Notes: generated by a model not told the origin, from the letters alone. Shown: positions 2 through 20,416, counted from the stretch's first letter. The stretch is DNA of 21,070 nt from Armatimonadota bacterium (GCA_037446215.1 JBBIJB010000013.1:7765-28834), one strand, 5' to 3'. Translations and numbers: made by a program.

Positions 2-988
2 GAGCTGCTCGACGGGACGCCCGGGCCGCCCCGGCTCCACGACGTGCTCGCCCGCGACAACGGCGTCTTCGCGGCGTTCTCCGACCAGGTCGGCTTCGAC
101 GGGCACTCGACCCACGTCGGCGGCGCCTACGTGCTCGGGCCGGACGACGTGATAGAGGTCTCGGTCTTCGCCAACGACGAGCTCTCCCGCGTCGTCATGG
201 TCAGGCCCGACGGCATGATCTCCCTGCCGCTTGTAGGCGAGGTCAGGGCCGCCGGCCTCACCCCCGAGCAGCTCCGCGAGCGCCTGGTCCCCATCTATGC
301 CCGCTACATCAGGAACCCCCAGGTCTCCATCATCGTCCGCGAGTTCCGCAAGGTCCGCGTCACGGTGCTCGGCCAGGTCACCAGGCCCGGCGTCTTCGAG
401 CTGCGGTTGGGCTCCACGGTCCTCGACGCCATCGCCGCCGCCGGAGGCCTCACAGACGCCGCCGGATTGGGTGAGGTACGCCTCAACCGGATCGGCTCCC
501 CCCAGATGACAATCGACCTCGAACGCCTCCTCCTGCGCGGCGAGGCCAACCTCAACCGGCCGCTGGAGGCAGGCGACTCCCTCGTCATACCCGAGGACCT
601 CGCCTCCCGCATCTACGTGCTCGGCGAGGTCGCCAGGCCAGGCGTCTTCCCCTTCAGGGGACACATGACCGCGGTCCAGGCGCTCGGCCTCGCCGGCGGA
701 CCCACCCGTAAGGCGCTGCTGGGCCGCGCCTACGTCATCCGAAGGAACCCTGAGGCCGCCACCACCTCGCCCATGCCCATCCAGACCGTCACCGTCGCCA
801 GGCAGACCGGCCCTGCGATCCGCCTCCTGTCCGTCGACTTCTACAAGATCCTCCGCGAGGGCGACATAGCCCGCGACATAGCGCTGCAGCGCGGCGACGT
901 CCTATACATGCCAGACAACCCGCTGGCCCTGGAGAACATCATCCTCGTGCTCGGCGGCATAGGTGACGTGCGATCGCTGTTGAGGTAG
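2..988 (+). CDS. wza: Polysaccharide export (OPX/Wza-like) protein with Poly_export and SLBB domains; probably 5'-truncated by the window edge
   Basis: The Poly_export motif YVLGPDDVIEVSVF...VRPDGMISLPLVGEVRAAGLT is present, followed by two SLBB repeats (VTVLGQVTRPG, IYVLGEVARPG) and a C-terminal amphipathic helix. The frame is open from base 2, so the GTG at 44 is probably not the true start. Confidence 0.9.
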   Translation, partial: ELLDGTPGPPRLHDVLARDNGVFAAFSDQVGFDGHSTHVGGAYVLGPDDVIEVSVFANDELSRVVMVRPDGMISLPLVGEVRAAGLTPEQLRERLVPIYARYIRNPQVSIIVREFRKVRVTVLGQVTRPGVFELRLGSTVLDAIAAAGGLTDAAGLGEVRLNRIGSPQMTIDLERLLLRGEANLNRPLEAGDSLVIPEDLASRIYVLGEVARPGVFPFRGHMTAVQALGLAGGPTRKALLGRAYVIRRNPEAATTSPMPIQTVTVARQTGPAIRLLSVDFYKILREGDIARDIALQRGDVLYMPDNPLALENIILVLGGIGDVRSLLR

Positions 989-1005
989 GCACACTCGCGG
1001 CCGCG

Positions 1006-4687: not shown

Positions 4688-6285
4688 CCCTGGAGGCAGT
4701 AGGCGAGGGGCCCCGCTTCCGCGTCAACGTGGCGGCCAGCTTCGCCTACCTCGCCGTCAACACATTGGTCGCGCTATGGTTCATCCCCTACCTGATACGG
4801 AACCTGGGGGTGGCCGCCTACGGGATGGTCCCGCTCGCCATCTCGATCACGTGGTACCTGAACGTCTTCACAATCGCGATCGGCGGGTCTGTGGGCCGCT
4901 TCCTGACCATGGACCTGGAGCGCGGCGACCTCGCGGCGGCAAGCCGCACCTTCAACACTACGCTCTTTGCGAGCGCGGCCCTGGTCGGCTTCCTGCTGGT
5001 TCCCGCCGGAGCCGGGATCGTGCTGGCGCCGCGGCTGCTGAGCGTCCCCGAGGGGATGGAGGGCGCGATGCGCGCGCTCTTGCTCTGGGGGCTGGCGGCG
5101 TTCTTCGTCATGACGATCGGCAACAGCTTCGGCGCCGCGGCGTTCGCGCGGAGGCGGTTCGACATGCAGAACGGGGCCAACGCCGCCGGGGTGCTGGCCA
5201 AGGCCTGCATCGCGGCCGCCCTGTTCTCGCTGCTCGTACCGAGACCCTGGCAGGCGGGCGCGGCCATCTTCGGCGGTCAAGTGGTCACGGTTGCAGGAGG
5301 CATCCTGATCTTCAGGCGGCTCTGCCCCGAGATCCGCGTCCGGTGGAGCGACTTCGATGCGGACCATCTGCGGGCGATACTGACCATGGGAGGATGGATG
5401 CTGGTCAGCCAGGTGGGCGCGGTGCTGATAACCAGCACCGAGCTCCTCATCGTGAATGTGATGGCGGGCTCGTCCGCCACCGGGTACTACGCGCCGGTGC
5501 TCCAGCTCGCGGTCCTGCTGCGCATGGCCGTCGGCCTAGTGGCAGGGGTGCTCTCGCCGGTCATCATCGGGTTCCATGCCAGGGCCGACTCGGAGGGGCT
5601 GCTGGCGGTCTCGTACCGCTCGGTCAAGCTACTAGGGCTGGCCGCCGCGCTCCCAGTCGGGCTGCTCTGCGGGCTGGCAGGCCCGCTGCTTCGCACCTGG
5701 CTCGGCGCGGAGTTCGAGGGGTTCGCGCCGCTGGTGTGGGTGATGATCGCCCCGCTCGCCGTCAGCCTCGCCTCCGCGCCGCTCGCATCGGTCAACACAG
5801 CGCTCAACAGGGTGCGCCTTCCCGGCCTGGCCACCCTCGCGGGCGGCGTCCTTAACGTCGCCCTGGCGGTGGTGCTGGCCGGGCCGGCAGGCCTCGGGAT
5901 GTACGGCGTGGCCGCGGCCAGGAGCGTCGTCGTGACGCTGCGCAACGCGGTATTCGCGCCGCTCTACACGGCGAGCACGCTGCGCAGGCCGCTGCTGACC
6001 TTCGCCCCGCCGCTGACCCTGCCGCTCGCCGCCGCCCTGCTCGCGGCCGGCATCGCCGCCGCTGCCTGGCGGCTGGCTGGAGTCACCGGGTGGGCAGGGC
6101 TCTTCCTGTGCGGCGCGGTCACCACGGCACTGTACGTGCCGGCCGTCCTCTTCGCGGCGCTGGGCAGGGAGGAGCGGAGGTTCGCGGTGCGCGTCGCGCT
6201 GGGAGAAAAGGCGATGCGCGCGCTGTTGGGGCGTGGGCCCGGGCCGGGCGGCGCGTACCCGCCCGAAGAGGAGCGGAAGGGATGA
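4684..6285 (+). CDS. wzx: Wzx-type oligosaccharide flippase (MOP superfamily); resembles Bacillus EpsK
   Basis: Polytopic hydrophobic protein of 533 aa with PYLIRNLGVAAYG and GLAGPLLRTWLG motifs. ATGA overlaps at both ends. Confidence 0.88.
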   Translation: MTLEAVGEGPRFRVNVAASFAYLAVNTLVALWFIPYLIRNLGVAAYGMVPLAISITWYLNVFTIAIGGSVGRFLTMDLERGDLAAASRTFNTTLFASAALVGFLLVPAGAGIVLAPRLLSVPEGMEGAMRALLLWGLAAFFVMTIGNSFGAAAFARRRFDMQNGANAAGVLAKACIAAALFSLLVPRPWQAGAAIFGGQVVTVAGGILIFRRLCPEIRVRWSDFDADHLRAILTMGGWMLVSQVGAVLITSTELLIVNVMAGSSATGYYAPVLQLAVLLRMAVGLVAGVLSPVIIGFHARADSEGLLAVSYRSVKLLGLAAALPVGLLCGLAGPLLRTWLGAEFEGFAPLVWVMIAPLAVSLASAPLASVNTALNRVRLPGLATLAGGVLNVALAVVLAGPAGLGMYGVAAARSVVVTLRNAVFAPLYTASTLRRPLLTFAPPLTLPLAAALLAAGIAAAAWRLAGVTGWAGLFLCGAVTTALYVPAVLFAALGREERRFAVRVALGEKAMRALLGRGPGPGGAYPPEEERKG

Positions 6286-7307
6286 AGCGAGCAGGGCCTT
6301 CGCCGCCGGCCGTGACCGTCGTCACCTCGGTGTACAACAAGCGGGACTACGTGGGCCTCTGCCTCGACTCCCTCGGCGAGCAGACGTGCATAGACTACGA
6401 GCTCATAGTCGTGGACGACGCATCGACGGACGGCGGCGCCGACGTGATCATCCCCCGCCTGCGGGACGGTGACAGGTACATCCGCCTGGGGCAGAACTCC
6501 GGACCGGGTGTGGCGCGCAACCGAGGCATACGGGAGGCGCGCGGCGAGTTCACCGCCTTCCTGGACGCGGATGACGCGTGGAAGCCCTCGTTCGTCGAAC
6601 GCATGCTCGCGTTCATGCGGTACAACCCCGACCTCGCGATGGCCTCCTGCTGCTCCGAGGTCGCTTCGACCGGCCTGCCCTGGCGGCCGTTCGATGGACT
6701 GCCCGCCGGCCGAATCGACGGTAAGCGGGAGTCCGTGACATACGACGGATTTCGAGGGTGGCGGGACCTGAGGGCCTTCGTGGCCTACGCCAGGCCGCCC
6801 GCGGTAGTGGTGCGAACCGAGGCCGCGCGCGCGGTGGGCGGATTCGAGGAGCGGCGCGTCCACTCAGAGGAGGAGATCCTGTGGATGAGGCTGGCCCTGG
6901 CGCACCCGGTCGGCTGCATGCGAGAGGCCCTCGCGCTGTACCGCACCGACGCGGTAGGGCAGCTATCGGAGAGATGGGACCCTCTGGACCGGGCGGAGAT
7001 CCTCTACCCCCAGGAGTTCCTGGAGGCCTGCCCGGCACGCCACCGCGCGCTACTCCACGGCTACCTGACGGATCGAGCCGCGGAGGCCGCGATAGACCGG
7101 ATCTTCAAGGGGCATGGGGCCGAGGCACGCGAGATACTGCAAGACCACATGCGCGCCGTGGGCGTCCACCGCGATCTGATCCCGGCGTTTCGCAGGATCC
7201 TGGTGGCCAGCTACCTCCCGCACGCGGCGATCATGTGGTACAGATCCGCGAGGAAGGCGATCCGGCAGGTGAGACGAAGAGGACCGGGAGGCGGACAGGG
7301 ACGTTGA
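6282..7307 (+). CDS. Glycosyltransferase family 2
   Basis: Motifs VTVVTSVYN, IVVDDASTD, ARNRGI and AFLDADD. The start was moved from the track's 6090 to the ATG at 6282, which overlaps the wzx stop (ATGA) and follows a purine-rich GAGGAGCGGAAGG. Confidence 0.88.
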   Translation: MKRAGPSPPAVTVVTSVYNKRDYVGLCLDSLGEQTCIDYELIVVDDASTDGGADVIIPRLRDGDRYIRLGQNSGPGVARNRGIREARGEFTAFLDADDAWKPSFVERMLAFMRYNPDLAMASCCSEVASTGLPWRPFDGLPAGRIDGKRESVTYDGFRGWRDLRAFVAYARPPAVVVRTEAARAVGGFEERRVHSEEEILWMRLALAHPVGCMREALALYRTDAVGQLSERWDPLDRAEILYPQEFLEACPARHRALLHGYLTDRAAEAAIDRIFKGHGAEAREILQDHMRAVGVHRDLIPAFRRILVASYLPHAAIMWYRSARKAIRQVRRRGPGGGQGR

Positions 7308-8614
7308 GGGCCGCCCGGATTCTCATCTACGGCGGCTTCGGCCCGTTCCACAACCTGGGCGATGAGGCGATACTCCGCTCGGCCGCGGCGAGGCTGCGGA
7401 AGATCGGCGGAGTGACCCTCACCGTGGGCGTGGACGACCCGGATGCCGCCCCGAGCATAGAGGGGTGCTCGTTCGCGCTCGGCGTGGCCGGCTACCTCCT
7501 GGCCGGCGCGAGGAACAGCCGCGTGCCGCGCGCAAGGAGGATCGTGCGGGGCGCCGTGTGGCGGGTCCGCTACCTGCTGCGGGCCGCCGCCCTCTGCGGG
7601 GTCATCGCGCTGCCTCGCCTGGCGCCGCTCCTCGCTCGGGGCCGGGGCAGGCTCGGCGCGGTGCTGAGGCCCCTGGTAGAGAACGACGCCGTCCTCTTCG
7701 TAGGCGGGGGCTACCTGAACTCGCGCTGGGTGTCGTCATCGCTGCAGCCGTCCGCGATTCAATCGGCGCTGGCCAGGCGCCTGCGCGTGCCCCTCTACCT
7801 GACGGGCCAGGGGTTGGGGCCGTTCCGGACGCGCTGGCACCGCTTCCTGATAGGAGTGCTGCTGCGGGGGGCCCGGCTGATCGGCGTCCGCGACTACGGC
7901 CACGACTCGCTGCGCCTGCTCCGCGACTTGGGAGTCCCCGGGGGCGTGGTGCGCTTCCTGCCGGACGACGCGCACGGACTCGTCGGGAGCGGCGGGGTCG
8001 CTCGCCGGAGGCGGGCGCGGCCCTCCGATCCAATCGTCATCGGCGTCAACTGGCGGAGCCAGGCATATGACACGCGGGCAGAGGAAGCGGGACTGATACG
8101 GTTGATCCTGGCCATCGCCGCGAAGCGCAGCGTAGAGGTGCGGCTGGTCCCGATGCTGATCGGCCCCGGGGGAGACGCCTCGTGCGACGCGCGGATCGCC
8201 GAGCAGCTGAACCGCATGGGGGTTCCCGCCGCGGTGAGGCCGCCGGGGCTCGAAGGCGTCCCCGCGGCGCTGGCTGGGTGCGACGTGGTGCTGGGCGGCA
8301 CGTACCATCTCGTCGTGCTGGCCCTCGACTCCGGGGTACCGGCGATGGGATTCGTCCGCGGAAGCTACTCGGAGCAGAAGATGAGGCCGCTCGTCTCCAG
8401 CTTCGGCTTCCCGCAGTGGGCGGTCTCCATAGAGCGGCTCACAAGCGGTGGGCCGGACCTGCCGCGGCTGGTCGAGGACGCGATCGAAGGCGGCGAGGAG
8501 CTGCGCGAACGCCTCCGCGAGCGGGCGCGTGAGAAGTCCGAGGCCCTGGATCGGGGCTATAGGGAGATGCTGGACGAGATGAACCGGGGGGCTCGATGCC
8601 GTCGGTCCGGGTGA
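7304..8614 (+). CDS. Polysaccharide pyruvyltransferase family protein (CsaB/WcaK-like)
   Basis: Motifs ILIYGGFGPFHNLGDEAIL, VGGGYLN, GQGLGPF, IGVRD, and YHLVVLALDSGVP. The TTG at 7304 overlaps the previous stop (TTGA). The track extension back to 6758 overlaps the GT2 gene and is rejected. Confidence 0.85.
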   Translation: MRAARILIYGGFGPFHNLGDEAILRSAAARLRKIGGVTLTVGVDDPDAAPSIEGCSFALGVAGYLLAGARNSRVPRARRIVRGAVWRVRYLLRAAALCGVIALPRLAPLLARGRGRLGAVLRPLVENDAVLFVGGGYLNSRWVSSSLQPSAIQSALARRLRVPLYLTGQGLGPFRTRWHRFLIGVLLRGARLIGVRDYGHDSLRLLRDLGVPGGVVRFLPDDAHGLVGSGGVARRRRARPSDPIVIGVNWRSQAYDTRAEEAGLIRLILAIAAKRSVEVRLVPMLIGPGGDASCDARIAEQLNRMGVPAAVRPPGLEGVPAALAGCDVVLGGTYHLVVLALDSGVPAMGFVRGSYSEQKMRPLVSSFGFPQWAVSIERLTSGGPDLPRLVEDAIEGGEELRERLRERAREKSEALDRGYREMLDEMNRGARCRRSG

Positions 8615-9675
8615 CGGGAATCGAGGCGCTGGGCCACAGGACCTACCTGGGGTACCTGGAGGCCCATCTCCGTTCCCGCCCGGAGTTCGGAGGCGTCCAC
8701 GTGGACCGGGTCGCGCCCGGGCCTGCGCTGCGGCTCTTCACCAACCGCTACTGGGTGGTCGGCAGCCACCGCAGCCGGACGATCCGCTTCTACAGGTGCC
8801 GCCACGCGCTCCTCTCCCCCGTGAGGGCGCGCTGCGACATTGAGCTCTTCCACACCCAAAACGTGGCAGGAGGCGCGCTCGACTCGAGGGCGGCGGTCGT
8901 CGTCTCGATCGACACCACCGGAGTCCTCACGGAGAGGATGACCGGGCGGCGGCACGACGGTGCGATGTTCAAGCTGGAGCAGGCGATCCTGCGGCGCGCG
9001 GATCTCGTCGCGGCGATGTCGCGTTGGGCCGCGGAGTCGGCCGCGGCGGACTACGGGGTCCTGCCTTCGAATATCCTGGTGGTGCGTAACGGCGTTCTCC
9101 CCACGGAGGCGCGCGCACACGTGGGCGGGGGCGGGTGGCTCTTCGTGGGAGGCGAGTTTCGCCGCAAGGGCGGCGACCTGCTGCTCGGGGTCCATCAGGA
9201 GCGGTTCCGGTCGGTGCCGCTCGTCGTCGTCACGTCGAGGCGGGAGGCCGGGCAGATCAAGGGCGAGAACGTCCGCGTCCACCATGACGTGTCGCGGGGG
9301 CGGCTGCTCGAGGAGTTCTATCCGCGGGCAGACCTCTTCGTCCTGCCGTCGAGAGAGGACTACTCGCCGTGGGTGATACCGGAGGCGCTCTGGTCAGGGG
9401 TGCCCGTGGTGGCAGCGCGCGTGGGCGCGATTCCCGAGATGCTGCGGGAAGGGCTGGACGGCTGGATGCTGGACCGAGTCGATAGAGGGCGCCTGGCCGA
9501 GACCCTCGGCACGGCGCGCGAGGCGCTGCGCGACCCTGCGGCGGCGCGGCGGATGAGCCGGTCTGCCAGGCAGAGGGCGGAGGAGATGCTGGACGTCGGC
9601 CGGAATCTGGACGCGCTGTGCGACCGCCTCCTGGAGATCGCTCCCGGGCGCGGCGAGGCGGGTCGCGGTGGCTAG
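8596..9675 (+). CDS. Glycosyltransferase family 4 (GT-B)
   Basis: Motifs LFVGGEFRRKGGD and ADLFVLPSREDYSPWVIPEALWSGVPVV (a D-x7-E variant), plus GAIPE. Confidence 0.88.
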   Translation: MPSVRVTGIEALGHRTYLGYLEAHLRSRPEFGGVHVDRVAPGPALRLFTNRYWVVGSHRSRTIRFYRCRHALLSPVRARCDIELFHTQNVAGGALDSRAAVVVSIDTTGVLTERMTGRRHDGAMFKLEQAILRRADLVAAMSRWAAESAAADYGVLPSNILVVRNGVLPTEARAHVGGGGWLFVGGEFRRKGGDLLLGVHQERFRSVPLVVVTSRREAGQIKGENVRVHHDVSRGRLLEEFYPRADLFVLPSREDYSPWVIPEALWSGVPVVAARVGAIPEMLREGLDGWMLDRVDRGRLAETLGTAREALRDPAAARRMSRSARQRAEEMLDVGRNLDALCDRLLEIAPGRGEAGRGG

Positions 9676-10504
9676 CGCGCCGCTCCCCAGGGTCAGCGTC
9701 CTCATGGGCGCCCACAACGCCGCGGGGTCTATCGTACGGGCGGTGCGATCGATCCAGGAGCAGACGCTGACCGACTGGGAGATGGTCGTCTGCGACGACG
9801 GTTCCAGCGACGCCACGCCCGATCTGCTGGCGGAACTCGCGCGTGAGGATCCGCGCATCCGGCCCTTCCGCAGTGAGCGCAACCGCGGGCTGGCCGCGGC
9901 ACTCAACCTCTGCCTGCGGGAGGCGCGGGCCGAGCTGTGCGCGCGGCAGGACGCCGATGACGTCTCGCTGCCCCGACGGCTCGAGACCCAGGTGCGGGCC
10001 TTCGAGGAGGACCCGGGGCTGGTGCTGGTAGGGTCAGCGGTGCTGTACGAGGATGAGGAGGGCCGGCAGTGGGGCGTCTCATCACCGGTGGAGTTCCCGG
10101 GTATGGCAGACCTGATCCGGGGGGCCCGCTTCGCGCATCCATCGGTGATGTACCGGCGGTCCGCGGTCACGGCCGTGGGCGGATACGACGAAGGGGTAGG
10201 CCGGGTCGAGGACTACGACCTCTGGTTCCGGTTGATGCCCGCGGGGCGGTGGCGAAACCTCCGCGAGCCCCTAGTGCGATACAGCTCGAGCCGCACGTCT
10301 CACGCGCGGCGCACCTTCGCCGACCGGCTGAACGAGGCGCGCGTTCGCCTGCGGGGCTACCGGAGGATCGGGGCACCCTGGTACGCCTACGCCTACGCGC
10401 TGAAGCCGCTCATGGTGGGGCTGCTGCCCACCTCCTGGCTGTGGCGTTACCACGCGGCGGCCAAGGGGCGCCGGATGCGCGCCGGCAGGGGCCGCGGTGG
10501 ATAG
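9668..10504 (+). CDS. Glycosyltransferase family 2, EpsE-like
   Basis: Motifs VSVLMGAHN, CDDGSSD, NRGLAAALNLCL, ARQDADD, FAHPSVM and VEDYDLW. Resemblance to B. subtilis EpsE along its length is from memory. Confidence 0.9.
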   Translation: MASAPLPRVSVLMGAHNAAGSIVRAVRSIQEQTLTDWEMVVCDDGSSDATPDLLAELAREDPRIRPFRSERNRGLAAALNLCLREARAELCARQDADDVSLPRRLETQVRAFEEDPGLVLVGSAVLYEDEEGRQWGVSSPVEFPGMADLIRGARFAHPSVMYRRSAVTAVGGYDEGVGRVEDYDLWFRLMPAGRWRNLREPLVRYSSSRTSHARRTFADRLNEARVRLRGYRRIGAPWYAYAYALKPLMVGLLPTSWLWRYHAAAKGRRMRAGRGRGG

Positions 10505-11609
10505 GGGGAGGGTGCTGCTCTTCATCCCCACGCTCTCCGGCGGCGGGGCGGAGCGGGTGGCGGTCAACCTCGTTCGGGCCACCCCCGGGCTGGACTGGCA
10601 CGTGGTCGTCTGGCGCGGCGGAGGCGTCTTCGAGCGCGAGCTGCCGCCGGGCGTCCCACTGCGCGTACTGGGTGGCCGGCGGCTCCGTTACTCGGCCCTC
10701 GCCCTGCGCAGGGCCGCCTCGGAGATACGCCCCGACATCCTCCTGTCGAGCCAGTGGGAGGCGGGGATCCCGGCCCTGCTGGCCCTCTCACCCCGCGTGG
10801 CCTGGATACCATGGGAGCACGTGACGGACGTCTCGCAGAGGCCCTGGGTCCTCGCGCGCTGCACCACGCTCGCATACAACCTGAGAGCCCACCGGGTCGT
10901 GTGCGTCTCCGACGACCTGCTCGGCCGCCTCGTGGGCGGGGGAGTCGCCCCGCGCAAGGTCGCCCGAATCTACAATCCCGTCGTTGGGCCGTGGATCGAG
11001 GAGGGGTGCCGGACGCGGCCGGAGCATCCGTGGCTCTCGGCGGGCGCCGGCGCCGAGGTCTTGGTCGCGGCAGGCCGGCTCGTCCACCAGAAGGGCTTCG
11101 ACCTGATGCTGGAGGCGATGGCAAGGGTCGTCCGGGCTCGCCCCTCGGCGCGGCTGATCGTGCTCGGCGAGGGACCGCGTCGGCCTGAGCTGACCGCGCT
11201 GCGCGCCAGCCTCGGGCTGGACCGATTCGTGGAGTTCGCGGGATTCCAACCGAACCCCTACGCGTACATGGCGGCGAGCGCGGCGTTTGTGATGTCCTCG
11301 CGGTGGGAAGGACTGCCCACGGTGCTGATCGAGGCCCTCGCGTGCGGCGCGCCCGCGATCTCCGTCGACTGCCCCTCCGGCCCGAGGGAGATCCTCCAGG
11401 ACGGCAGGGCAGGGATACTGGTGCCGCCCGAGAATCCGGATGCACTCGCGGATGCGGTGCTCCGCGTGCTGGAGGACGGCGCGCTCCGAAGGCGCCTGAT
11501 CGAGGAAGGCAGGGAGCGCTCCAGGGAGTTCTCAGTGGAGGCATCGGCCCAGGCCTTCGTCCGGCTGTTCGCGGAGGTCGCGGGCGGCGGGCGAGTGGAG
11601 GACGGATAG
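10497..11609 (+). CDS. Glycosyltransferase family 4 (GT-B; PglJ/WabH-like)
   Basis: Motifs LSGGGAERV, IYNPV, AGRLVHQKGFD, GFQPNPY and SSRWEGLPTVLIEALACG. Confidence 0.92.
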   Translation: MDRGRVLLFIPTLSGGGAERVAVNLVRATPGLDWHVVVWRGGGVFERELPPGVPLRVLGGRRLRYSALALRRAASEIRPDILLSSQWEAGIPALLALSPRVAWIPWEHVTDVSQRPWVLARCTTLAYNLRAHRVVCVSDDLLGRLVGGGVAPRKVARIYNPVVGPWIEEGCRTRPEHPWLSAGAGAEVLVAAGRLVHQKGFDLMLEAMARVVRARPSARLIVLGEGPRRPELTALRASLGLDRFVEFAGFQPNPYAYMAASAAFVMSSRWEGLPTVLIEALACGAPAISVDCPSGPREILQDGRAGILVPPENPDALADAVLRVLEDGALRRRLIEEGRERSREFSVEASAQAFVRLFAEVAGGGRVEDG

Positions 11610-11613
11610 AGAC

Positions 11614-12843
11614 GTGAGCGCAACCCTGACACCGACCATGCTCGGGCTCGCCGCCGCGGTGATGTTCCTGGGGCCGGAGCTGCCCGTGGGCGAGGCGAGC
11701 ACCCTGTCCCTGGCAGGCCCGCTGCTGGCCGTGGCCCTGGCCGTCGCCCTTTGGCAGAGGCTGCCCCGTCTGTGGATGCTTGGGTCGCGTGAGGCGTACG
11801 CGGTGGTGCCGGCCTACTTCGCAGGGGGATCGATCGTCTTCTTCCTCCTGGGCGAGATGCCGGCGCTGATCCTGCTGGCCGCGTTCCAGTGGGCGGTCTA
11901 CGCGGGGTACTTCCTCATGCCGGCGGCCTTCGGGCCGAGGGATCGCGCCGGCTTCCTCGGGGTGGTGCTGCCGCTGCTGCTGGGGCTCTACGCGCTCGCC
12001 GCCATTTGGTCCGCGTTCTACGGACCGATCTACCCCTTCATACAGAAGAGCCTGCACCTGCTGCCCGGCACGCCTCTGTTCCGCGCCGTGGCCACCGGGG
12101 AGAGCCCGAACGGCTGCGCGGTCGTGCTGGTGACCGCGCTCGGCCCGCCTCTGTTCGCCTGGAAGCCGCGCCTGCGCCTCCTCAAGCCCCTGCTGGTGGG
12201 GACGGTGGTGCTGGCGCTGCTGCTGACCGCGTCCAGGGCCGGGTGGCTCTCGCTCGCGGTCGCTGCGGGCGTCTGCCTGGCGCTGATGACGCTGGGCGGC
12301 GGGAAGGGGCGGGGGTGGGTGCCGGTCGCGCTGGTGCTGGTAGCGGCGCTGGTCGGCATCTACATAACAATGGCCATGGCGCCGATCCACGCGCTGAGGG
12401 CGGTCGGGGCCGAGGAGTTCGGGCTCGGGCGAGATCTCGCCTTCCGCGTGGAAGTCCTGTGGTCTCGGGGCGTGGAGCTCTTCCGTGATGCATCTGTCCC
12501 CACCCAGATCTTCGGGAGGGGGTTCCGGAACACGTCGCAGATCTACCACGAGGGCGACGTCGCGCTGTACGGGTCCTACCACAACTCCTGGATCCAGTTC
12601 CTCCTGGACGGCGGGATCGTCGGGCTCGCCCTGCTCCTTTGGTGGATCCTGACGGTCGCATGGCGCGCCGCACTACGCAGGGGCGACGACCGCGGCCTGG
12701 CCGCGATCTGGATGGTGGTCGCGACGGTCGTGGCCGGCACAACCGAGAACTTCCTCTACGGAACGACAACGATCATGCTGCTGGGGCTGGCGACGTGGCT
12801 GGCCTTCTCCCCGCCCGATGAGCCGGAGGTAGCAGGTGGCTAG
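11614..12843 (+). CDS. wzy: O-antigen ligase/polymerase family membrane protein, probable Wzy
   Basis: Multi-TM protein with ESPN, LLTASRAGW and a Wzy_C-like FGRG...YHNSWIQFLLDGGIVG motif. It sits in a wzx/wzc operon. Confidence 0.8.
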   Translation: MSATLTPTMLGLAAAVMFLGPELPVGEASTLSLAGPLLAVALAVALWQRLPRLWMLGSREAYAVVPAYFAGGSIVFFLLGEMPALILLAAFQWAVYAGYFLMPAAFGPRDRAGFLGVVLPLLLGLYALAAIWSAFYGPIYPFIQKSLHLLPGTPLFRAVATGESPNGCAVVLVTALGPPLFAWKPRLRLLKPLLVGTVVLALLLTASRAGWLSLAVAAGVCLALMTLGGGKGRGWVPVALVLVAALVGIYITMAMAPIHALRAVGAEEFGLGRDLAFRVEVLWSRGVELFRDASVPTQIFGRGFRNTSQIYHEGDVALYGSYHNSWIQFLLDGGIVGLALLLWWILTVAWRAALRRGDDRGLAAIWMVVATVVAGTTENFLYGTTTIMLLGLATWLAFSPPDEPEVAGG

Positions 12844-14011
12844 GCCCGGCCCGGAGCGGCCCGTTCTGGTCGTTCAGGCAACGGTTCCGGGAACGCTGTC
12901 CAGGTTCTTCAGGGGCCTGCTGGGGTGGCTGCGGCGGCAGGGCATGGAGGTTCACGCGGTCGCGAGCCCCGGCCCGGCCATGGAGGAGATGGCGGGTAGG
13001 GAGGGCATAAGCTGCCACGAGCTCCCCATGTCGCGACGGATCTCGCCGCTGGCCGACCTCCTGTCGCTCCTTCGAGCCGTGCGGCTGTACGCGCGGCTGC
13101 GCCCTTCGATAGTGCACGGCTTCACGCCGAAGGCCGGGCTGACCGCCATGCTCGCCGCCTGGATCACGCGCCGGCCTGTGCGGCTGTACACGATCTTCGG
13201 CTTCCCGCACCTCACGAAGAAGGGGCCGTTGAGGTGGCTGCTGGTGAGCTGCGATCGGATCTCCTGCGCGCTTGCGCACCGGGTCTACTTCCAGTGCGAG
13301 TCGATCCGCCAAGTGGCGATCGCCGAGCGGATCTGCCGCGCCGAGAAGAGCCGTGTGATGCCGGCCTGGAACTTCAACACCATCAGCGACAGCTTCGCGA
13401 GGACCGAGGGTCTGCTGGAGTCGGGTAGAGAGCTCCGCCGCGATCTGGGCATACCCGCCTGCGCGCCGGTCGTCGGCTACATCGGCCGCCTGACCAGGGA
13501 CAAGGGCCTGCCGGAGCTCATCGACGCGTTCGAGCTCCTGGCCCCGCGGTTCCCCGAGCTGCGTCTCGTGCTCGTGGGCAGAAGAGACGGAACCGACCGC
13601 GTACCCGAGAGAACCCTCTCCCGGATTGAGGCCCACGACCGGATCCTTGAGGTAGGCCATCAGCGCGACGTCCCCCGGTATCTTGCCGCGTTCGACCTGT
13701 TGGTGCTGCCGTCGCTGCGCGAGGGCATTGGGACCGTCTCGTACGAGGCGGCCGCCATGGAGCTGCCCGTCGTCTCGACCCGGATACCGGGCAACATCGA
13801 TACGGTAGCGGACGGCCTGACCGGCACCCTGGTGCCGCCGTGCGACGCCGAGGCCCTGGCGGGCGCGATACGACGCTACATCGAGGATCCGGGGCTGCGC
13901 GCATCGCACGGCCGGGAAGGCCGACAGCGCCTGATGCGGAACTTCCCGCTCGAACGGCTGTGGGAAGGTCTCCTCGACGAGTACACGCGCCTGCTGAGGC
14001 CGGGCGCCTAG
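12836..14011 (+). CDS. Glycosyltransferase family 4 (CapM-like)
   Basis: Motifs RRISPLADL, VHGFTPKAGL, IGRLTRDKGLPEL and LPSLREGIGTVSYEAAAMELPVV. GGAGG RBS upstream of the GTG start. Confidence 0.92.
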   Translation: MARPGPERPVLVVQATVPGTLSRFFRGLLGWLRRQGMEVHAVASPGPAMEEMAGREGISCHELPMSRRISPLADLLSLLRAVRLYARLRPSIVHGFTPKAGLTAMLAAWITRRPVRLYTIFGFPHLTKKGPLRWLLVSCDRISCALAHRVYFQCESIRQVAIAERICRAEKSRVMPAWNFNTISDSFARTEGLLESGRELRRDLGIPACAPVVGYIGRLTRDKGLPELIDAFELLAPRFPELRLVLVGRRDGTDRVPERTLSRIEAHDRILEVGHQRDVPRYLAAFDLLVLPSLREGIGTVSYEAAAMELPVVSTRIPGNIDTVADGLTGTLVPPCDAEALAGAIRRYIEDPGLRASHGREGRQRLMRNFPLERLWEGLLDEYTRLLRPGA

Positions 14012-15216
14012 CGCGCGCTCCCGGCCAGCCCCCGAAGAGCCCTCCTGATCCGCTTCAGCAGCCCGTAGATCCGCGACGATACGGGATGCCGCATGGCCGC
14101 GGCCCGGATGCGCTTCTTGAGCTCGCCGGGCCAGAGCGGCCGGGCGAGGACGCTACGCAGCGCGCGGCAGTACTCCTCCTCGCCGCCTCGCTTCTCCAGC
14201 GCCCTGAGGTTGTCCATCGCGGCAAGGCGCACCCTCACCGGGGCAGGGTCGATACTGAGAATGTTTCTCACTTCCAGCGGCGCGTCGAAGGTCGTGCACC
14301 GCTCCAGCGCGCCGAAGGCCCGGAGCGCCAGCATCGTCCGCACGCACTTCTCGCAGCGCCCGCAGTTGTAGGCGCCGTCCGTGTTCGTAAAGCAGACCCG
14401 TAGCGACCTCAGCACGATCTCGTGGCCCGAGATCACGGCGACCTTGTCCACCCGCGTCGCCTCGCAGCCGTCGTGGATGAACTCGAGCGCCTCCGAGCTC
14501 CACAGCGGGTCGAGCAGCGGGTGGGAGCCGCCCACGTAGAGCCGAGAGTAGGTCTGGCTCGCCGGGATGTAGATCCGCGCGAGGGATGAGGACAGCAGGT
14601 GGCCGACCGCGGCCATGGCGGCGCCGTGCGAGATGCACGCCCAGTCCACGTGGGGGTCGAGCAGCGTCCGCAGGTTGGTCTCGACCTCGACGACACGTTT
14701 GCCGTAGAACGCCCCCACCTCCGCGATCATGCTCGAGGTCCTCTGGTAGAGGGATTCGCTCTCGAGGCTCATGTCGAAGCCGCGGACGAAGACCAGGTCG
14801 GTGATCTCGTCCCGGTGCTTGAGCAGCGTGTAGAAAGAGTCCACGCCCCCGGAGAAGAACATGCCGGTCCTGGCGCCGCGCGGCGCGGCCCTCTCCGCGG
14901 GGACGGCGCCGCGCACCTCCACCCTCCGCAGCGACGGCTCCCAGTCGCAGAAGATGTCCTGGATCGTGGGAAGCGCGGAAAGCAGGCGCCGGCTGACCTC
15001 GGGGCCGTCCCCACCGCCGATGGCGAGGGCCTCGGCCGCCCGCATCGCCGGGAGGAGCGCGCACGCCAGCAGGCCCTCGGTGCTCGCACCGAGGGCCGCG
15101 TTGGGGCTCTGGAAGTAAACGGGGTAGCGCTCGGCGCCGAGGCAGAACTCGACCTCGGCCCTGCGTCCCTGGTCTGTCGTCCTCACCTCTCCGATCCGCA
15201 GCTCACTCGCGACCAC
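14008..15216 (-). CDS. Uncharacterised PP-loop (adenine nucleotide alpha-hydrolase/QueC-like) protein with C-terminal four-Cys cluster, paralog A
   Basis: PP-loop FFSGGVDS and LRVC-x9-CGRCEKCVRT. GTG start preceded by GGAGGTGA. Confidence 0.75.
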   Translation of the reverse strand: MVASELRIGEVRTTDQGRRAEVEFCLGAERYPVYFQSPNAALGASTEGLLACALLPAMRAAEALAIGGGDGPEVSRRLLSALPTIQDIFCDWEPSLRRVEVRGAVPAERAAPRGARTGMFFSGGVDSFYTLLKHRDEITDLVFVRGFDMSLESESLYQRTSSMIAEVGAFYGKRVVEVETNLRTLLDPHVDWACISHGAAMAAVGHLLSSSLARIYIPASQTYSRLYVGGSHPLLDPLWSSEALEFIHDGCEATRVDKVAVISGHEIVLRSLRVCFTNTDGAYNCGRCEKCVRTMLALRAFGALERCTTFDAPLEVRNILSIDPAPVRVRLAAMDNLRALEKRGGEEEYCRALRSVLARPLWPGELKKRIRAAAMRHPVSSRIYGLLKRIRRALRGLAGSAR

Positions 15217-15219
15217 CCG

Positions 15220-16410
15220 TCACCTCCAGACCTTCCGAAGCGCCCGGTAGTACCTCTCCAGCGCGGGATACCGCGCCGCCGCGCCACGCAGGCGTCCTTT
15301 GACCCCCGCGTGCCAGCGCGGCCGGTTGAGGATCTTGCGAAGGGCGCGGCAGAGCTCCTCCTCGCCGCCCTTCTTCTCCAATGCCTTCAGGTTGTCCATG
15401 GTGGCTCCGCGCCTGCCCGCGCGGTCCACGTCGATCCTCACCACGTTCCTTACGTCCAGAGGCGCGTCGAATGTGGTGCAGCGCTCCAGCATGCCGACAG
15501 CACGCAGGGCGATCATCGTTCGGAGGCACTTCTCGCATCGGCCGCAGTTGTAGGCCTCGCCTGGATTCACGAAGCACACCCGCAGGCTCCTCAGCGCGAT
15601 CTCACTCTCTGAGATGAGCGCCGCCTTCATCGGCCTCGTTGCCTCGCAGCCGTCGTGGACGAACTCGAGCGCCTCCGAGCTCCACAGGGGGGCCAGCAGC
15701 GGGTGGGTCCCCCACGGGACGATCCTGGCGTAGGTGCGGCTCGCGGGGACGTAGATCTTGTCCAGGTCCGCCGACAGGAGGTGGGCGACGGCCGCGAGCG
15801 CGGCGCCGTGCGCCAGCAGCGCCCAGTCCGCGTAGGGGCCGAGGAGCGAGGGCAGGTTGGTCTCAACCTCTACGACCCGCTTGCTGTAGAACGCGCCGAC
15901 CTCGCGGATCATGTCAGACGTCCTCCGGCGCAGCGAGGCGCTCTCAAGGCTGATATCGAAGCCGTGGACGAAGAGGAGATCCGTGATCTCGTCCTGGTGC
16001 TTCAGCAGCGTGTAGAACGAGTCCACGCCTCCCGTGAAGAACGTGCCGACCCGTCCCCCCTGACGCCGGATCCTCCGCACAGGAGTGACGCCGCTCAAGG
16101 TGACCCTGCGAAGCCCGGGATCCCAGTCGTGGTAGATGTCCTGGATCGTGGAGAGGGCACGGAAGAAGCGCTCGCTGATCTCAGCCCCAGTCCCCCGCGT
16201 TGCCTCTTCGCCGATCGTCAGGCGATCGGCGAGCCTCATGGCCGGCAGCAGCGCGCAGGCGATCAGCGACTCGGGGTTTGGCGAAAGCGCCGCGTCGCCG
16301 CCGCTGAAGTGGACGGGGTGGTGCTCCTGGCCGAGATCGAACTCCACCTCCACCCTGCGCCCGCCATCGCCGGACCGCACCTCAGAGATGCACAGATCCC
16401 TAACCGTCAC
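15220..16410 (-). CDS. Uncharacterised PP-loop (QueC-like) protein with four-Cys cluster, paralog B
   Basis: PP-loop FFTGGVDS and LRVC-x9-CGRCEKCLRT. Colinear with 14008-15216 over its full length. GGAGG RBS precedes the GTG. Confidence 0.75.
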   Translation of the reverse strand: MTVRDLCISEVRSGDGGRRVEVEFDLGQEHHPVHFSGGDAALSPNPESLIACALLPAMRLADRLTIGEEATRGTGAEISERFFRALSTIQDIYHDWDPGLRRVTLSGVTPVRRIRRQGGRVGTFFTGGVDSFYTLLKHQDEITDLLFVHGFDISLESASLRRRTSDMIREVGAFYSKRVVEVETNLPSLLGPYADWALLAHGAALAAVAHLLSADLDKIYVPASRTYARIVPWGTHPLLAPLWSSEALEFVHDGCEATRPMKAALISESEIALRSLRVCFVNPGEAYNCGRCEKCLRTMIALRAVGMLERCTTFDAPLDVRNVVRIDVDRAGRRGATMDNLKALEKKGGEEELCRALRKILNRPRWHAGVKGRLRGAAARYPALERYYRALRKVWR

Positions 16411-16542
16411 CCACCGCCTCCGCGCCGTGTGGTACCCTGTCTGTCAGGAACACCTGGGCCATCCGCGCACGAATCGCCACCGCGTATGCTTTGCCGCGGA
16501 CCAGGTGAATTCCCGCGGAGTAGGCACCGAGGGAGAGGGCCG
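16411..16542. promoter_or_regulatory. Divergent intergenic control region with an imperfect inverted repeat
   Basis: This 132-bp gap between divergent genes has an RBS at each end. CACCTGG (16451-16457) pairs with CCAGGTG (16501-16507), and TCCGCG (16462-16467) pairs with CGCGGA (16495-16500). Possible extended -10 TGGTACCCT at 16430-16438 (+). Confidence 0.5.
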
Positions 16543-18345
16543 TTGATAACCGTAGTCATCACAGCGGCCGGGGGCGGGGTATGCCAGGCGGTGCTCCGCG
16601 CGCTGCGGTACGGCCCGCTCTCAGTGCGGACCGTCGGCGTCGACCCGGATCCCATGGGCGTCGGCCTCTACTGGGCCGATGCCGCCTATCTCGTGCCGCC
16701 CGCCTCGGACGAGGAGGCCTACATCCGGCGCCTGCTCGAGATCTGCAGCGCCGAGCGCGCCGACGCGCTGATACCCGGATCGGACCCCGAGCTCGTCCCC
16801 CTGGCGCGCCATCAGGATCGCTTCCTCCGGCAGGGCACCAGGGTGATCGGCGGGAGCCCCGCCGCGGTCGAGCTCTGCCGCGACAAGCTCGCGCTCGCGC
16901 GGTTCTGCGGTGAGCGCGGCCTGCCCTTCGTCGAGACCTGGCCGCTGGCAGAGGCCCGGGAGATGCTCGGCGGGCAGGCGCCGTTCCAGTTCCCGGTGAT
17001 AGTCAAGCCGCGCGCGGGATCGGGATCGGTCGGGGTGCGGCTGGTGCACGACCTGGACGACCTGCTGCGGGTCCCCCCGGAGGCCGACTTCGTCGTCCAG
17101 AGGTACATGCCGCCGCTTTGGCCCGGGCAGTCCGGGCAGCCGGCCCCCTCCGGCCGCACGGGCGCGGCCGGCCGCTGGAGCCAGCGCCTCGACCAGTCGA
17201 ACGAGGTATCGACCCAACTCCTGATCGGCAGGTCCGGCGAGATCATCGGCTACTCCCTGACCATCAACCGCCTTAAGGACGGCGTGCCGATGGAGGTCGT
17301 GCCGGATCCGCATCCATCGGGTGTGAAGGCCTCCCTCGAGGTGGCCTCTGCGCTGGCCGCCCAGGGGATGCGGGGCCCGCTCAACCTGACCGGCCGCGTG
17401 ACGCCTGACGGGGTGCGATTCTTCGAGGCCAACCCGAGGTTCGTGGGATCGACGGGGGCGCGCGCGGCGCTCGGCAGCCAGGCCGTGCACGCCGCGCTGC
17501 TCGAGTTCGTGCTGGAGCGAAGCGAGGAGGCCCGCGCCTGCCTGAGGGAGCCGCCCGACGCCCTGGTCCTCCGCCACGTCGAGGAGACCGTGGTGCCGCT
17601 CGATCGGGTCGAGAGGGTAAGGGAAACCGGCGCAGGCGCCGTGACCGTACCCCTGCCCCCGGCGCCGCGCCGCGCGCTGATCACCGGCTCCTCGTGCCGC
17701 CTGGCCGCGGCGCTCGCGGGGAGGCTGGCGGCCTCGGCTGAGGCAGCCGGATCTCCCGGCCCGTTCGAGGTCGGGACGCTGCCGGGAATCGAGGAGACCC
17801 AAAAGCGGCTCCGACAGGCGCTCGAAGGGGTGGACGCGGTGGTGCACCTCGCGGAGCTGAGGCCCGCCGCGACGGACCCCCAGCCGCCGGAGGAGCTCTT
17901 CCGCGCGAACACCGAGGGGGCCAGGATCCTGGCGGAGGCGGCCCGCCGGGCAGGCGTCCGCCGCCTGGTCTACCTCTCTACGCAGGAGGTCTACGGCGGC
18001 GCCCCGCGGCCGTGGTCGGAGGCGCTGGTGCCGCGTCCGGAGTCGGCGTACGCGCTCAGCAAGTGGATCGGGGAGATGGCGTGCGCGGGCCGAGGAGGCG
18101 AGGGTACGAGCGCCGTGATCCTAAGGGCGCCGCCCGGCGGCCAGGGGGCGGCGGGCGGCCGCTCTGAGGCCGCGGGCGGCGAGGAGACCCGTGAGGAGCT
18201 CTGCGAGGCGATCGCGCGCGCGTGCGCGCTGCGGATGCCGCCTGGGGGAACGCTGGTCCTCAACGTCGGCGGATCCGCCGATACGCGCCGCGCCCGGCTC
18301 TACCTGGGCGGGCCCGGCGCGCAGGCCCAGGAGGAGGAGCGTTGA
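16543..18345 (+). CDS. ATP-grasp (carbamoyl-phosphate-synthase-like/PylC-like) domain fused to a truncated NAD-dependent epimerase/SDR-like domain, copy 1
   Basis: TTG 16543 follows GAGGGAGAGG. ATP-grasp motifs LIPGSDPEL, CRDK, PVIVKPRAGSGSVGV and FFEANPRF. SDR motifs DAVVHLA, RRLVYLST and SAYALSK. The track extension to 15655 overlaps the - strand gene and is rejected. Confidence 0.8.
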   Translation: MITVVITAAGGGVCQAVLRALRYGPLSVRTVGVDPDPMGVGLYWADAAYLVPPASDEEAYIRRLLEICSAERADALIPGSDPELVPLARHQDRFLRQGTRVIGGSPAAVELCRDKLALARFCGERGLPFVETWPLAEAREMLGGQAPFQFPVIVKPRAGSGSVGVRLVHDLDDLLRVPPEADFVVQRYMPPLWPGQSGQPAPSGRTGAAGRWSQRLDQSNEVSTQLLIGRSGEIIGYSLTINRLKDGVPMEVVPDPHPSGVKASLEVASALAAQGMRGPLNLTGRVTPDGVRFFEANPRFVGSTGARAALGSQAVHAALLEFVLERSEEARACLREPPDALVLRHVEETVVPLDRVERVRETGAGAVTVPLPPAPRRALITGSSCRLAAALAGRLAASAEAAGSPGPFEVGTLPGIEETQKRLRQALEGVDAVVHLAELRPAATDPQPPEELFRANTEGARILAEAARRAGVRRLVYLSTQEVYGGAPRPWSEALVPRPESAYALSKWIGEMACAGRGGEGTSAVILRAPPGGQGAAGGRSEAAGGEETREELCEAIARACALRMPPGGTLVLNVGGSADTRRARLYLGGPGAQAQEEER

Positions 18346-20095
18346 TCACGGTCGCGGTGACCGGCTGCGGGAGCGCCGCCGGCCACACCGTGCTGCGCTC
18401 GCTGCAGTACGCGCCCCAAGCGGTCAGGACCGTGGGCGTAGACCCGAGCCCCGCGGGCGTCGGGCTCCACTGGGTGGATGTCGCGTACATAGTGCCCGCG
18501 GCCTCGGACGAGAGGGCCTACATCGAGCGCCTGCTGGAGATCTGCCGCGCCGAGCGCGTGGAACTGCTGATCCCCGGCTCCGATCCCGAGTTGATCCCGC
18601 TGGCGCGCCACCAGGAGCTGTTCCTGCGTGAGGGCACCCGGGTGTTGGTCGGGAGCCCGGCCGCCGTCGAGCTGGCACGCGACAAGTGGGCGCTGGCCGA
18701 GTACTGCCGTGCGCGCGGCCTGCCGTTCGTGGAGACATGGCTGCTGGAGGACGCGCGGCAGCGCATCGCAGAGCTTGCCTTCCCCGTGATAGCCAAGCCG
18801 AGGTCCGGGTCGGGATCGGTCGGCGTCCGGCTCGTGCACGATCCGGAGGACCTCCTCCGGATCCCGCCCGACGCGGAGTTCATCGTCCAGCGATACATGC
18901 CGCCCCTACCGCCGGTGCGCCCCGGATCCGGCCTCCGGCCCGGCACCGCGGTGCCGGGCGGCGAGGCCTCCTTGGGCGTCCCCACAGGCTGGCCGGGCGA
19001 CGGGTTGAAGAGGTGGCTGCAGCGGCTCGACCAGCGCAACGAGTGCTCGAGCCTGGCGCTGATCGGCCCGTCCGGAAGGGTGCTGGGATGCTGCACGTCG
19101 GTCAACCGCCTCAAGGACGGCGTGCCGATGGAGGTGGTGCCGTACCCCGCTCCCTCTCCGGAGGAAGTACCCGCCCTCGCCCGGGCGATGGCCGAGGCGG
19201 GGATGCGGGGGCCGCTCGGGCGCTGTCGGGCCGCTCCACGCCCGATGGGGTGCGCTTCTACGAGATCAACGCCCGCTTCATCGGGTCCACCTCGGCACGC
19301 GCCGCCTTGGGGTTCCGCGCCGTAGGCGCCGCGATCTGGGCGTTCGCGCTCGACCGTGAGGACGAGGCAGAGAGGTGCCTGGGATGGACGGCGTCCGCGG
19401 CCGTGATCCGGCACGCCGACGATACGGTCGTGCCTAAGGAGGGCATCGCGCGGCTGGGGCGAGCGCGGGGGATACCGGAGGCGCCCCCACCGATGCCCAT
19501 GCCGCGCCGCGTGCTGCTGACCGGCGCCTCCGAGCCCGTCGGCGCGAGCCTCGTCGAACTGCTCCGCGCCGCACCCGGCGTGGAAGAGGTCAGGACGCTG
19601 ACGGGGACCGAGGATGAAGAGCGGCTCTCCGGCGCCATGGAAGGTATCGAGGCGGTGGTGCACCTGGCGGAGCTCCGCCCTGCGCCCCCTATCCGGCCCG
19701 AGGAGCTCTACGCGGCCAACGCGGAGGGCACGCGGCGGCTGGCCTCTGCGGCCCGCGGGGCCGGAGTCTCCCGGATGGTCTACCTGTCCTCCACCGAGGT
19801 CTACGGGAGCGCCACGCCGCCGTGGTCCGAGACCCAGGCGCCCAGGCCGGAGACGGCCTACGGGCAGAGCAAGCTGGCCGGCGAGATGCTGTGCGCGGAC
19901 GGGGCCGCGATCGCCGTCATCCTCCGCGCCGGGGATGCCTCCACCGCGGACCTGTGCGGGGCGATCCTGCGGGCCGTCGCAATGCCCCCTTCCCCAGGCC
20001 AGTCGCTCGTCCTCAACGTGGGGAGCGGACCCGGGCTCGACACGCGGCGCATACGCGCCCGGCTGGGGTGGGCGCCTTCGGGCAGGAGCGGTTGA
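18342..20095 (+). pseudogene. ATP-grasp::SDR-like fusion, copy 2; frameshifted at about 19218-19222 (true pseudogene or sequencing error)
   Basis: TTG 18342 overlaps the copy 1 stop and follows GGAGGAGGAG. Homology to copy 1 runs in the 18222-ORF frame up to GMRGPL. It then continues in the 18686-ORF frame (LSGRSTPDGVRFYEINARF...TAYGQSK) to the TGA ending at 20095. Confidence 0.8.
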
Positions 20096-20116: not shown

Positions 20117-20152
20117 TTGACGGGCACATCCTGATGGTTCCATAATGGTTCC
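20117..20152 (+). promoter_or_regulatory. Sigma70-type promoter of the TA operon with direct-repeat operator
   Basis: TTGACG (20117-20122), an 18-nt spacer, then CATAAT (20141-20146). ATGGTTCC direct repeats at 20134-20141 and 20145-20152 overlap the -10 element. Confidence 0.7.
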
Positions 20153-20182: not shown

Positions 20183-20416
20183 ATGCCCAAGAACCTGTCG
20201 ATGAAGAAGGTGCCGGACGAGCTGATCGCCCTCCTCAGGGAGAGGGCCAGGAGGAGGCACCGGTCCCTGCAGGGGGAGCTGCTCGCCACCCTGGAGGAGT
20301 CCCTGCTGCCTAGACGGCTGACGGTCGCCGAGCTCACGGGTCGCATTCGCGATCTGGGCCTGCGGACGCCGCAGGAGGCGACGCGGATGATCCGGGAAGA
20401 CCGCGATGGCCGCTAG
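20183..20416 (+). CDS. FitA/VapB-like ribbon-helix-helix antitoxin
   Basis: MPKNLSMKKVPDELIALLRERARRRHRSLQGEL matches the Arc/FitA RHH pattern. It ends in IREDRD and overlaps the PIN gene by 11 nt. Confidence 0.85.
   Translation: MPKNLSMKKVPDELIALLRERARRRHRSLQGELLATLEESLLPRRLTVAELTGRIRDLGLRTPQEATRMIREDRDGR

Follow-up and report, generated by a model that had tools for sequence, protein, structure and literature searches.

The stretch analyzed here, referred to as the window, comprises 21,070 nucleotides of an Armatimonadota genome (GCA_037446215.1, JBBIJB010000013.1:7765-28834). Beside a Wzx/Wzy polysaccharide operon, it carries two tandem genes for PP-loop proteins (PP1 and PP2) and two tandem genes for ATP-grasp domains fused to short-chain dehydrogenase/reductase (SDR) domains (AG1 and AG2). 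The operon contributes five glycosyltransferases of families 2 and 4 (GT2, GT4), a pyruvyltransferase of family PF04230 and a Wzy-like gene. A preliminary description of this DNA had read the four genes as a divergent "2+2" cassette forming a single module for carboxylate modification. Gene calls bear out its layout, with two paralogous PP-loop genes on the minus strand that share one 132-bp divergent region with the ATP-grasp genes and abut the last glycosyltransferase gene of the operon (Table 1). The gene set is nevertheless 2+3, as a third, full-length ATP-grasp::SDR gene lies inside the operon just upstream of the window.

Table 1. Coordinates of the genes and features discussed (positions in the window unless a contig is named)
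Feature	Position	Strand	Remarks
Wza-Wzi-Wzc-Wzx-GT2-pyruvyltransferase-GT4-GT2-GT4-Wzy-like-GT4 operon	44..14011	+	From gene calls and Pfam
PF04230 polysaccharide pyruvyltransferase-family protein	7304..8614	+	Likely functional partner of PP1/PP2
Last GT4 of the operon	12836-14011	+	Convergent with PP2; stop codons of both overlap
PP2 (P0003), PP-loop enzyme of predicted QueC/QatC fold, 402 aa	14008..15216	-	
PP1 (P0002), PP-loop paralogue, 396 aa	15220..16410	-	
Divergent intergenic region, 132 bp	16411..16542	none	Between PP1 and AG1 starts
AG1 (P0001), ATP-grasp (PRK12767-like) fused to truncated SDR, 600 aa	16543..18345	+	TTG start
AG2, second ATP-grasp::truncated SDR	18342..20095	+	Frame split near 19220 in this assembly
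Third ATP-grasp::SDR, full-length, 694 aa	G000:C13:5397-7481		In the operon; about 280 bp separate it from the window

The PP-loop pair and the ATP-grasp::SDR copies

PP1 and PP2 share 63% identity. PP2 carries an SGGVDS loop at residues 122-127 and a cysteine site, C275-x9-C285xxC288xKC291; PP1 has TGGVDS as its loop and keeps all four cysteines. Across 112 members of the family, the [ST]GGxDS loop is kept in 100 and C(x)9CxxCxKC, a variant of the QueC zinc motif C(x)8CxxCxxC and thus a putative zinc site, in 110. The QueC motifs that bind its substrate 7-carboxy-7-deazaguanine, YxQxHxxE, VPxRN and YPDC (as given in the consulted text of PMC13329287), are each absent from all 112 members, and the substrate of the PP-loop family should therefore differ from that of QueC. 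The PP-loop proteins gave no significant match in Pfam, NCBIfam (E ≤ 1), PADLOC (six proteins) or PDB sequences. PP2 scores 10.3 bits with the QueC model PF06508 (gathering cut-off 22), single members yield sub-threshold Pfam matches to QueC (46/112) and DUF6395 (30/112), and an Atlas search ranked unnamed clusters first, with DUF6395 (0.89) and QueC (0.87) serving as leads only. The predicted structure of PP2 (predicted local distance difference test score 94) was matched by QatC over residues 2-360 (Z 15.7, root-mean-square deviation 4.9, 294 aligned), by the QueC core (Z 12.5, deviation 3.4, 182 aligned) and by the Cap9 core (Z 11.3). Modeling thus predicts a QueC-like PP-loop/Cys4 fold for both proteins, in keeping with the preliminary description. 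The final 45 residues of PP2 are predicted to form basic amphipathic helices with a net charge of +12, and a C-terminal net charge of at least +5 recurs in 107 of the 112 relatives; this tail suggests a membrane-bound substrate. The family has no Pfam entry and spans at least 7,000 sequence clusters in bacteria and archaea (7,491 at 50% identity with E ≤ 1e-10). At three loci (L215, that is G208:C21, L041 and L035) at least three PP-loop domains stand in a row, partly in one chain, and no glycan gene lies near the run at L215.

Pfam and NCBIfam models divide the AG proteins into an ATP-grasp half (PylC-like N-terminal part, PRK12767-like; 172.8 for model PRK12767.1-1, under its cut-off of 218) and an Epimerase half (SDR, PF01370), and a genome search found the fusion gene triplicated as AG1, AG2 and the upstream copy. 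All three copies keep K115, K155, G159/S162/G164 and E300/N302/R304; the two lysines, the Gly-rich loop and the ExNxR strand we take, from biotin carboxylase and CarB, to be the ATP-binding core. Among 45 well-conserved ATP-grasp columns, 6 are changed in the upstream copy, 2 in AG1 and 7 in AG2, while most of 37 relatives show 0-2 changes. The SDR catalytic residues S500, Y525 and K529 are likewise present in every copy. The NAD(P) motif GxxGxxG, however, occurs only in the upstream copy (TGAAGYVG), whose SDR is whole, and is absent from AG1 (TGSSCRLA) and AG2 (TGASEPVG), which lack 96 and 124 SDR columns, respectively. Hence the two tandem ATP-grasp fusions described before stand as far as their domains are concerned, but AG2 is split in this assembly and the SDR halves of both are degenerate. 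Since the upstream copy retains the SDR whole and AG1 best retains the ATP-grasp, the three copies seem to have split functions or drifted after triplication.

The split in AG2 is caused by two extra bases near position 19220. Run X1, possibly the source of this DNA, has them, whereas the X2 and X3 contigs do not and X4 leaves the site uncovered; an intact form of 583 aa is on record (P0130, P0142; sister assemblies). PP1 has Ala at a column (base 15692) where 110/110 relatives have Asp, a residue also present there in run X3 and in the sister protein P0149; the X2 row of this comparison derives from the paralogue. One copy of each pair is hence lesioned, in the X1 sample only, and as both lesions rest on contigs of depth 5-7, mutation and assembly error are indistinguishable. 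All four genes lie together on a 48,040-bp contig of a sister assembly. The PP and AG pairs are similarly diverged (63-64% identity, about 0.70 synonymous substitutions per site, dS). The ratio of nonsynonymous to synonymous substitutions between copies (dN/dS) is 0.38-0.54, a value inflated because dS is compressed at a third-position GC content (GC3) near 0.9. As judged from the sequences, selection has acted on the copies, with a strength that is not readable from dN/dS.

Two families without co-occurrence

Were the four genes one module, their families should be found together. In a neighborhood survey, which the preliminary description had named as one way to refute it, no co-occurrence was found. 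The profile of the ATP-grasp half matched in 0 of 79 PP-loop loci, and the PP-loop profile in 0 of 80 ATP-grasp::SDR loci, a set of metagenome loci containing some near-duplicates, whose gene labels come from clustering and were Pfam-checked on the local copies. A further sample, drawn evenly by phylum, had 31 PP-positive genomes among 301; 20 loci from 15 of these were examined, none with a member of the ATP-grasp family. An ATP-grasp domain was also absent from all 57 long PP-loop proteins and from the 134 PP-gene neighbors scanned with Pfam (of 226 picked; 88 proteins and 4 near-duplicates fell outside the scan, as did 14 loci without a gene pick). Among 40 relatives, six carry the PP-loop family, none of them with the fusion, and none of the 40 matches the ATP-grasp half over its full length; weak matches in six are confined to residues 4-180. 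The PP-loop and ATP-grasp families are not homologous.

The earlier proposal that the matched duplication reflects cognate pairs or hetero-oligomers draws on the shared divergent region, on the near-equal divergence of both pairs and on the joint occurrence of all four genes on the sister contig. A similar dS is, however, expected at such a GC3, tandem PP copies occur without any ATP-grasp in 10 of the 79 PP-loop loci and 15 of the 57 long proteins, and the ATP-grasp::SDR copies number three, not two. Because the gene order is PP-PP|AG-AG, two separate tandem duplications are needed, and this requirement, together with the triplication, makes the 2+2 symmetry incidental. With zero co-occurrence in every set examined, the neighborhood counts largely refute the four-gene module, which we now regard as highly improbable; the two modules are very probably independent.

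Each family is nevertheless tied to glycan loci, as had been anticipated. The 80 ATP-grasp::SDR loci contain pglC-like genes in 40 cases, DegT in 38, GT4 in 32, PglF-like genes in 21 and PglD-like genes in 17, the distance being no more than 200 bp for pglC in 28 and for DegT in 17. Often the SDR has a gene of its own beside the ATP-grasp gene, and a pglC-ATP-grasp-SDR-DegT-PglF unit recurs, either fused or as two adjacent genes; we found no literature on this unit. The local operon follows the same lines, running upstream of the window start from a pglC-like gene through DegT, a PglF-like gene and the third ATP-grasp::SDR gene to wza. On a chromid of Sinorhizobium terangae (L233:6935-8911), an ATP-grasp and an SDR gene of related type stand side by side near GT4 genes, and S. 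fredii has similar matches. Cultured rhizobia are thus tractable hosts for the ATP-grasp/SDR unit.

Association of the PP-loop family with polysaccharide pyruvyltransferases

A locally built pyruvyltransferase profile matched in 35 of the 79 PP-loop loci, within 1.5 kb of the PP gene in 28 and within 300 bp in 21. The ATP-grasp::SDR loci, serving as control, gave 0/80, though 35 of them carry GT2 or GT4. PF04230 beside the PP gene was confirmed by Pfam in 13 of 39 loci scanned, and 7 of the 20 evenly drawn loci have a pyruvyltransferase within 9 kb. Among the six PP-positive relatives, four possess a second, non-housekeeping pyruvyltransferase adjacent to the PP gene or one gene off. The association extends to fusions: the 57 long PP-loop forms include 33 joined to PF04230 (34 by the local profile) and 18 joined to GT2, the remainder being five without a Pfam label and one spurious case. 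In Azospirillum brasilense Sp7, a transferase gene and a PP-loop gene, AMK58_RS27455 and AMK58_RS27450, form a unit of two, and on a P. aryabhattai plasmid a pyruvyltransferase is followed by two PP-loop paralogues; this Priestia pair keeps SGGVDS. The PP-loop family is therefore associated with polysaccharide pyruvyltransferases. In the tree of pyruvyltransferases the partner enzymes fall on several branches, which fits an action of the PP-loop proteins on the product that these enzymes share.

The window pyruvyltransferase matches PF04230 with 84.7 bits (cut-off 25.3) and keeps R196, H335 and K359, corresponding to CsaB R148, H308 and K328 when matched by motif rather than by alignment to CsaB. 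It has GGTYH in place of the phosphoenolpyruvate (PEP)-site RLH of CsaB (R306) and Pvg1p (R337), whose arginine is placed on PEP by docking, as far as the available text of PMC4872226 and PMC10435577 goes. The same position reads xSYH in 33 of 34 fused pyruvyltransferase domains, which group with the window enzyme in a quick tree (branch not starred; Shimodaira-Hasegawa-like approximate likelihood ratio test, SH-aLRT, 89). A search of 1,354 genomes, made regardless of PP-loop genes and covering 20 of 27 non-center matches, found seven xSYH genes (three on contigs of at most 4 kb), of which one has a PP gene nearby; a PP gene is adjacent to 3 of the 20 examined matches, and genome G365 has no PP match. 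With one PP neighbor among seven xSYH genes, a strict requirement of Arg-less transferases for a PP-loop partner is ruled out: the Arg-less type is enriched with the PP-loop family, yet does not need it. Among 93 further genomes of the phylum, no close relative of the window enzyme was found (E ≤ 1e-22). xYH in place of RLH marks a PF04230 branch that occurs in several phyla and may or may not have a PP-loop neighbor.

Several further features surround these genes. Directly after AG2 lies a pair encoding a FitA-like ribbon-helix-helix antitoxin and a PIN-domain toxin (20183-20792), associated with the one promoter-like site seen in the region (20117-20146); the 132-bp divergent gap itself contains no sigma-70-like promoter consensus, which is weak evidence at 70% GC. 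Apart from the PP and AG paralogy, no repeats were found in the stretch. Shortly past the end of the window, and following an S4-domain gene, a PglD-like hexapeptide acetyltransferase is encoded (G000:C13:28857-29537; L002:858-1538), parted from pglC, DegT and PglF by the entire operon. Upstream of the pglC-like gene, L001:515-1594 is an open reading frame that, from its translation, we take to be HNH-like and of repeat-element type.

Proposed functions, precedents and alternatives

We propose that the locus holds two independent, separately duplicated glycan-tailoring modules, with the PP pair amidating a pyruvate ketal and the ATP-grasp family N-acylating an amino sugar. PP1 and PP2 would adenylate the carboxylate of the ketal set by the operon's pyruvyltransferase (ATP + R-COOH -> acyl-AMP + PPi), after which NH3 or a small amine would attack the acyl-AMP, as in QueC and Cap9, to give an amide. 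The reaction would probably use the repeat unit while it is lipid-linked at the inner membrane face, where the basic amphipathic tail could hold the enzyme, and would cancel the negative charge of pyruvylation. By analogy, such amidation of the pyruvate carboxylate is likely. The carboxylate activation envisaged in the preliminary description would thereby survive as the best reading for the PP-loop pair, supported by its neighbors and fusions, while the ATP-grasp pair drops out of it. The ATP-grasp family is instead probably an acyl-phosphate amide ligase like Pyl of Bacillus cereus; it would N-acylate the 4-amino-4,6-dideoxy sugar that PglF and DegT produce, and its SDR would reduce or epimerize the ligation product. 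AG1 and AG2 are partly degenerate extra copies of the in-operon enzyme. As a whole, we judge this reading evenly poised between right and wrong.

The precedents are partial. In QueC and Cap9, ATP serves to activate a carboxylate and the acceptor is NH3 or an N-terminal amine, according to the consulted portion of PMC13279940. Both (QueC: PF06508, PDB 3bl5 and 2pg3; Cap9: 9nto) resemble PP2 in the PP-loop core, the four-cysteine site (Z 11-12.5) and, probably, acyl-adenylate chemistry; PP1 and PP2 differ from QueC in length (396-402 aa versus about 220), in lacking its substrate motifs and in scoring below the Pfam cut-off. QatC of the qatABCD anti-phage system (PDB 9y01/9y02; PMC13279940, same portion) resembles PP2 in its whole architecture, including an extra N-terminal domain, in the SGGxDS loop and, presumably, in a substrate pocket altered relative to QueC, where QatC has the T-x-T residues T278/T280. 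In contrast to QatC, to which identity is 13-14%, the PP pair has no PADLOC match and no qatA/B/D-like neighbors, lies beside pyruvyltransferases and glycosyltransferases and bears a basic, membrane-type tail. WbpG-type N-sugar amidotransferases (cluster 5 in the consulted text of PMC13329287) are PP-loop enzymes that also tailor surface polysaccharides, but have CxxC(x)6CxC and a YDC triad reversed relative to QueC, unlike the C-terminal C(x)9CxxCxKC of the PP family, which has no NCBIfam match. For the ATP-grasp::SDR family, the closest precedent by analogy is probably Pyl of B. cereus ATCC 14579, an ATP-grasp enzyme that ligates 2-oxoglutarate to a UDP-4-amino sugar in the UDP-yelosamine pathway; its gene, too, has those of a small phosphoglycosyl transferase and of amino-sugar enzymes as neighbors (PMC11626204, parts available). 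The likeness lies in gene context, and the local family differs in its SDR, either fused or coupled, and in its triplication. A further ATP-grasp enzyme that forms amides during capsule synthesis is the C-terminal TupA-like amidoligase of Cj1438 of Campylobacter jejuni, which acts on glucuronate (PMC11800379, parts available); the window proteins match PRK12767-like models instead.

A number of observations weigh against the proposal. We found no literature on amidated pyruvate ketals or on a role of the PP-loop family, subscription journals and supplements lying outside the scope of the search, and the pyruvylation review PMC6801904, in its available text, has no passage on amidated ketals for the terms searched. 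The profile that gave the 35 pyruvyltransferase matches was built from PP-linked sequences, and four matches fall below 45 bits; the control loci of the 0/80 comparison are shorter than the PP loci (median 10.9 versus 20.8 kb). The fused transferases with xSYH form one clade and count as about one event, the A. brasilense PP-loop relative fails the [ST]GGxDS pattern, and the window pyruvyltransferase lies 5.4 kb and five genes from the PP genes. Because 13 of the 20 evenly drawn PP loci lack a nearby GT2, GT4 or pyruvyltransferase, many PP-loop members may act in trans or on another substrate. As to the ATP-grasp proteins, Gln288 (present in 36/37 relatives), Thr306 and Glu319 are lost in all three local copies, so that none may be a normal ligase; Q288, replaced by A, T and S, belongs to an N-x-Q before the ExNxR strand and is presumably a metal ligand. 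Given the PglD-like gene that closely follows the window, the 4-amino group may also be acetylated by its product. Together with the PglD-like genes in 17 of the 80 family loci, this gene weakens the simple idea that the ATP-grasp replaces PglD.

Other readings of the PP-loop proteins start from the same evidence. The enzyme could act on a uronic acid carboxylate, or on an acetamido oxygen to yield an amidine as WbpG-type amidotransferases do, and both the 18 of 57 long forms fused to GT2 instead of a pyruvyltransferase and the 12 of 44 glycosyltransferase-bearing PP loci without a pyruvyltransferase match would fit. We consider this unlikely, as the specific enrichment is for PF04230, the cysteine motif is unlike that of the WbpG cluster (consulted text of PMC13329287), NCBIfam gave no match at E ≤ 1 and no UDP-sugar dehydrogenase gene was found among the window genes by Pfam scan. 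Alternatively, the PP-loop enzyme might amidate the PEP donor, and an Arg-less pyruvyltransferase transfer the neutral pyruvamide unit to the sugar. The lack of the docked arginine in the window enzyme and in 33 of the 34 fused domains, and the grouping of these transferases in the quick tree, speak for such a donor; yet most adjacent partners keep RxH (30 rows of the tree set), the xSYH survey and G365 show the transferases largely apart from PP genes, and in the available text of PMC4872226 and PMC10435577 neither R306 nor R337 is shown essential by mutation, which leaves the idea improbable.

Still less probable is a linker role for the ketal, in which its activated pyruvate carboxylate would be coupled to the N-terminus of a protein or to a larger amine: although the top full-length structural match of PP2 is QatC, extra N-terminal domain included, and Cap9 acylates an N-terminal Gly (PMC13279940, consulted portion), the PP neighbors include no recurring small partner protein, PADLOC gave no match, and the enzyme needs cytoplasmic ATP whereas the capsule is assembled outside. 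A further possibility, compatible with amidation of the ketal, is that the window holds redundant extra copies in decay, AG2 and PP1 foremost, and that only the upstream ATP-grasp::SDR and one PP copy matter. The frameshift and the lost invariant Asp in this sample, the SDR deletions and the high dN/dS would agree with decay. Both lesions are absent from sister populations and were seen at a contig depth of only 5-7, the frames stayed open through about 40% divergence, and the compressed dS inflates the ratio; we therefore give this little credence.

Amidation of the ketal can be extended to the family as a whole. A QueC/QatC scaffold in at least 7,000 clusters might install pyruvamide (or cyano) ketals, an undescribed decoration that would switch off the charge of pyruvylation, and in the branch that includes this locus a transferase without the PEP-binding Arg may take an amidated donor directly; this extension is possible but somewhat doubtful. 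No relevant literature was found for QueC with polysaccharide and pyruvyl transferase, for ATP-grasp amide with capsule and aminotransferase, or for DUF6395. The consulted main text of PMC13329287 contains none of the terms "polysaccharide", "pyruvyl" and "capsul", while its supplementary cluster tables could bear on novelty.

Ketal pyruvylation sets surface charge and provides an epitope for S-layer anchoring, antibodies and phages. The 2+2 cassette itself is a local accident and carries little weight alone; what the locus adds is the refutation of a four-gene module, the triplication of ATP-grasp::SDR and the branch of Arg-less transferases. Cultured hosts with a compact transferase and PP-loop unit, such as A. 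brasilense Sp7 and P. aryabhattai, make the proposal directly testable. If true, amidation of pyruvate ketals would add a new level to the tailoring of glycans. Thousands of "hypothetical proteins" outside Pfam and the 2026 QueC-family survey would gain a function, and the chemistry of the QueC fold would reach beyond nucleobases and proteins to glycans.

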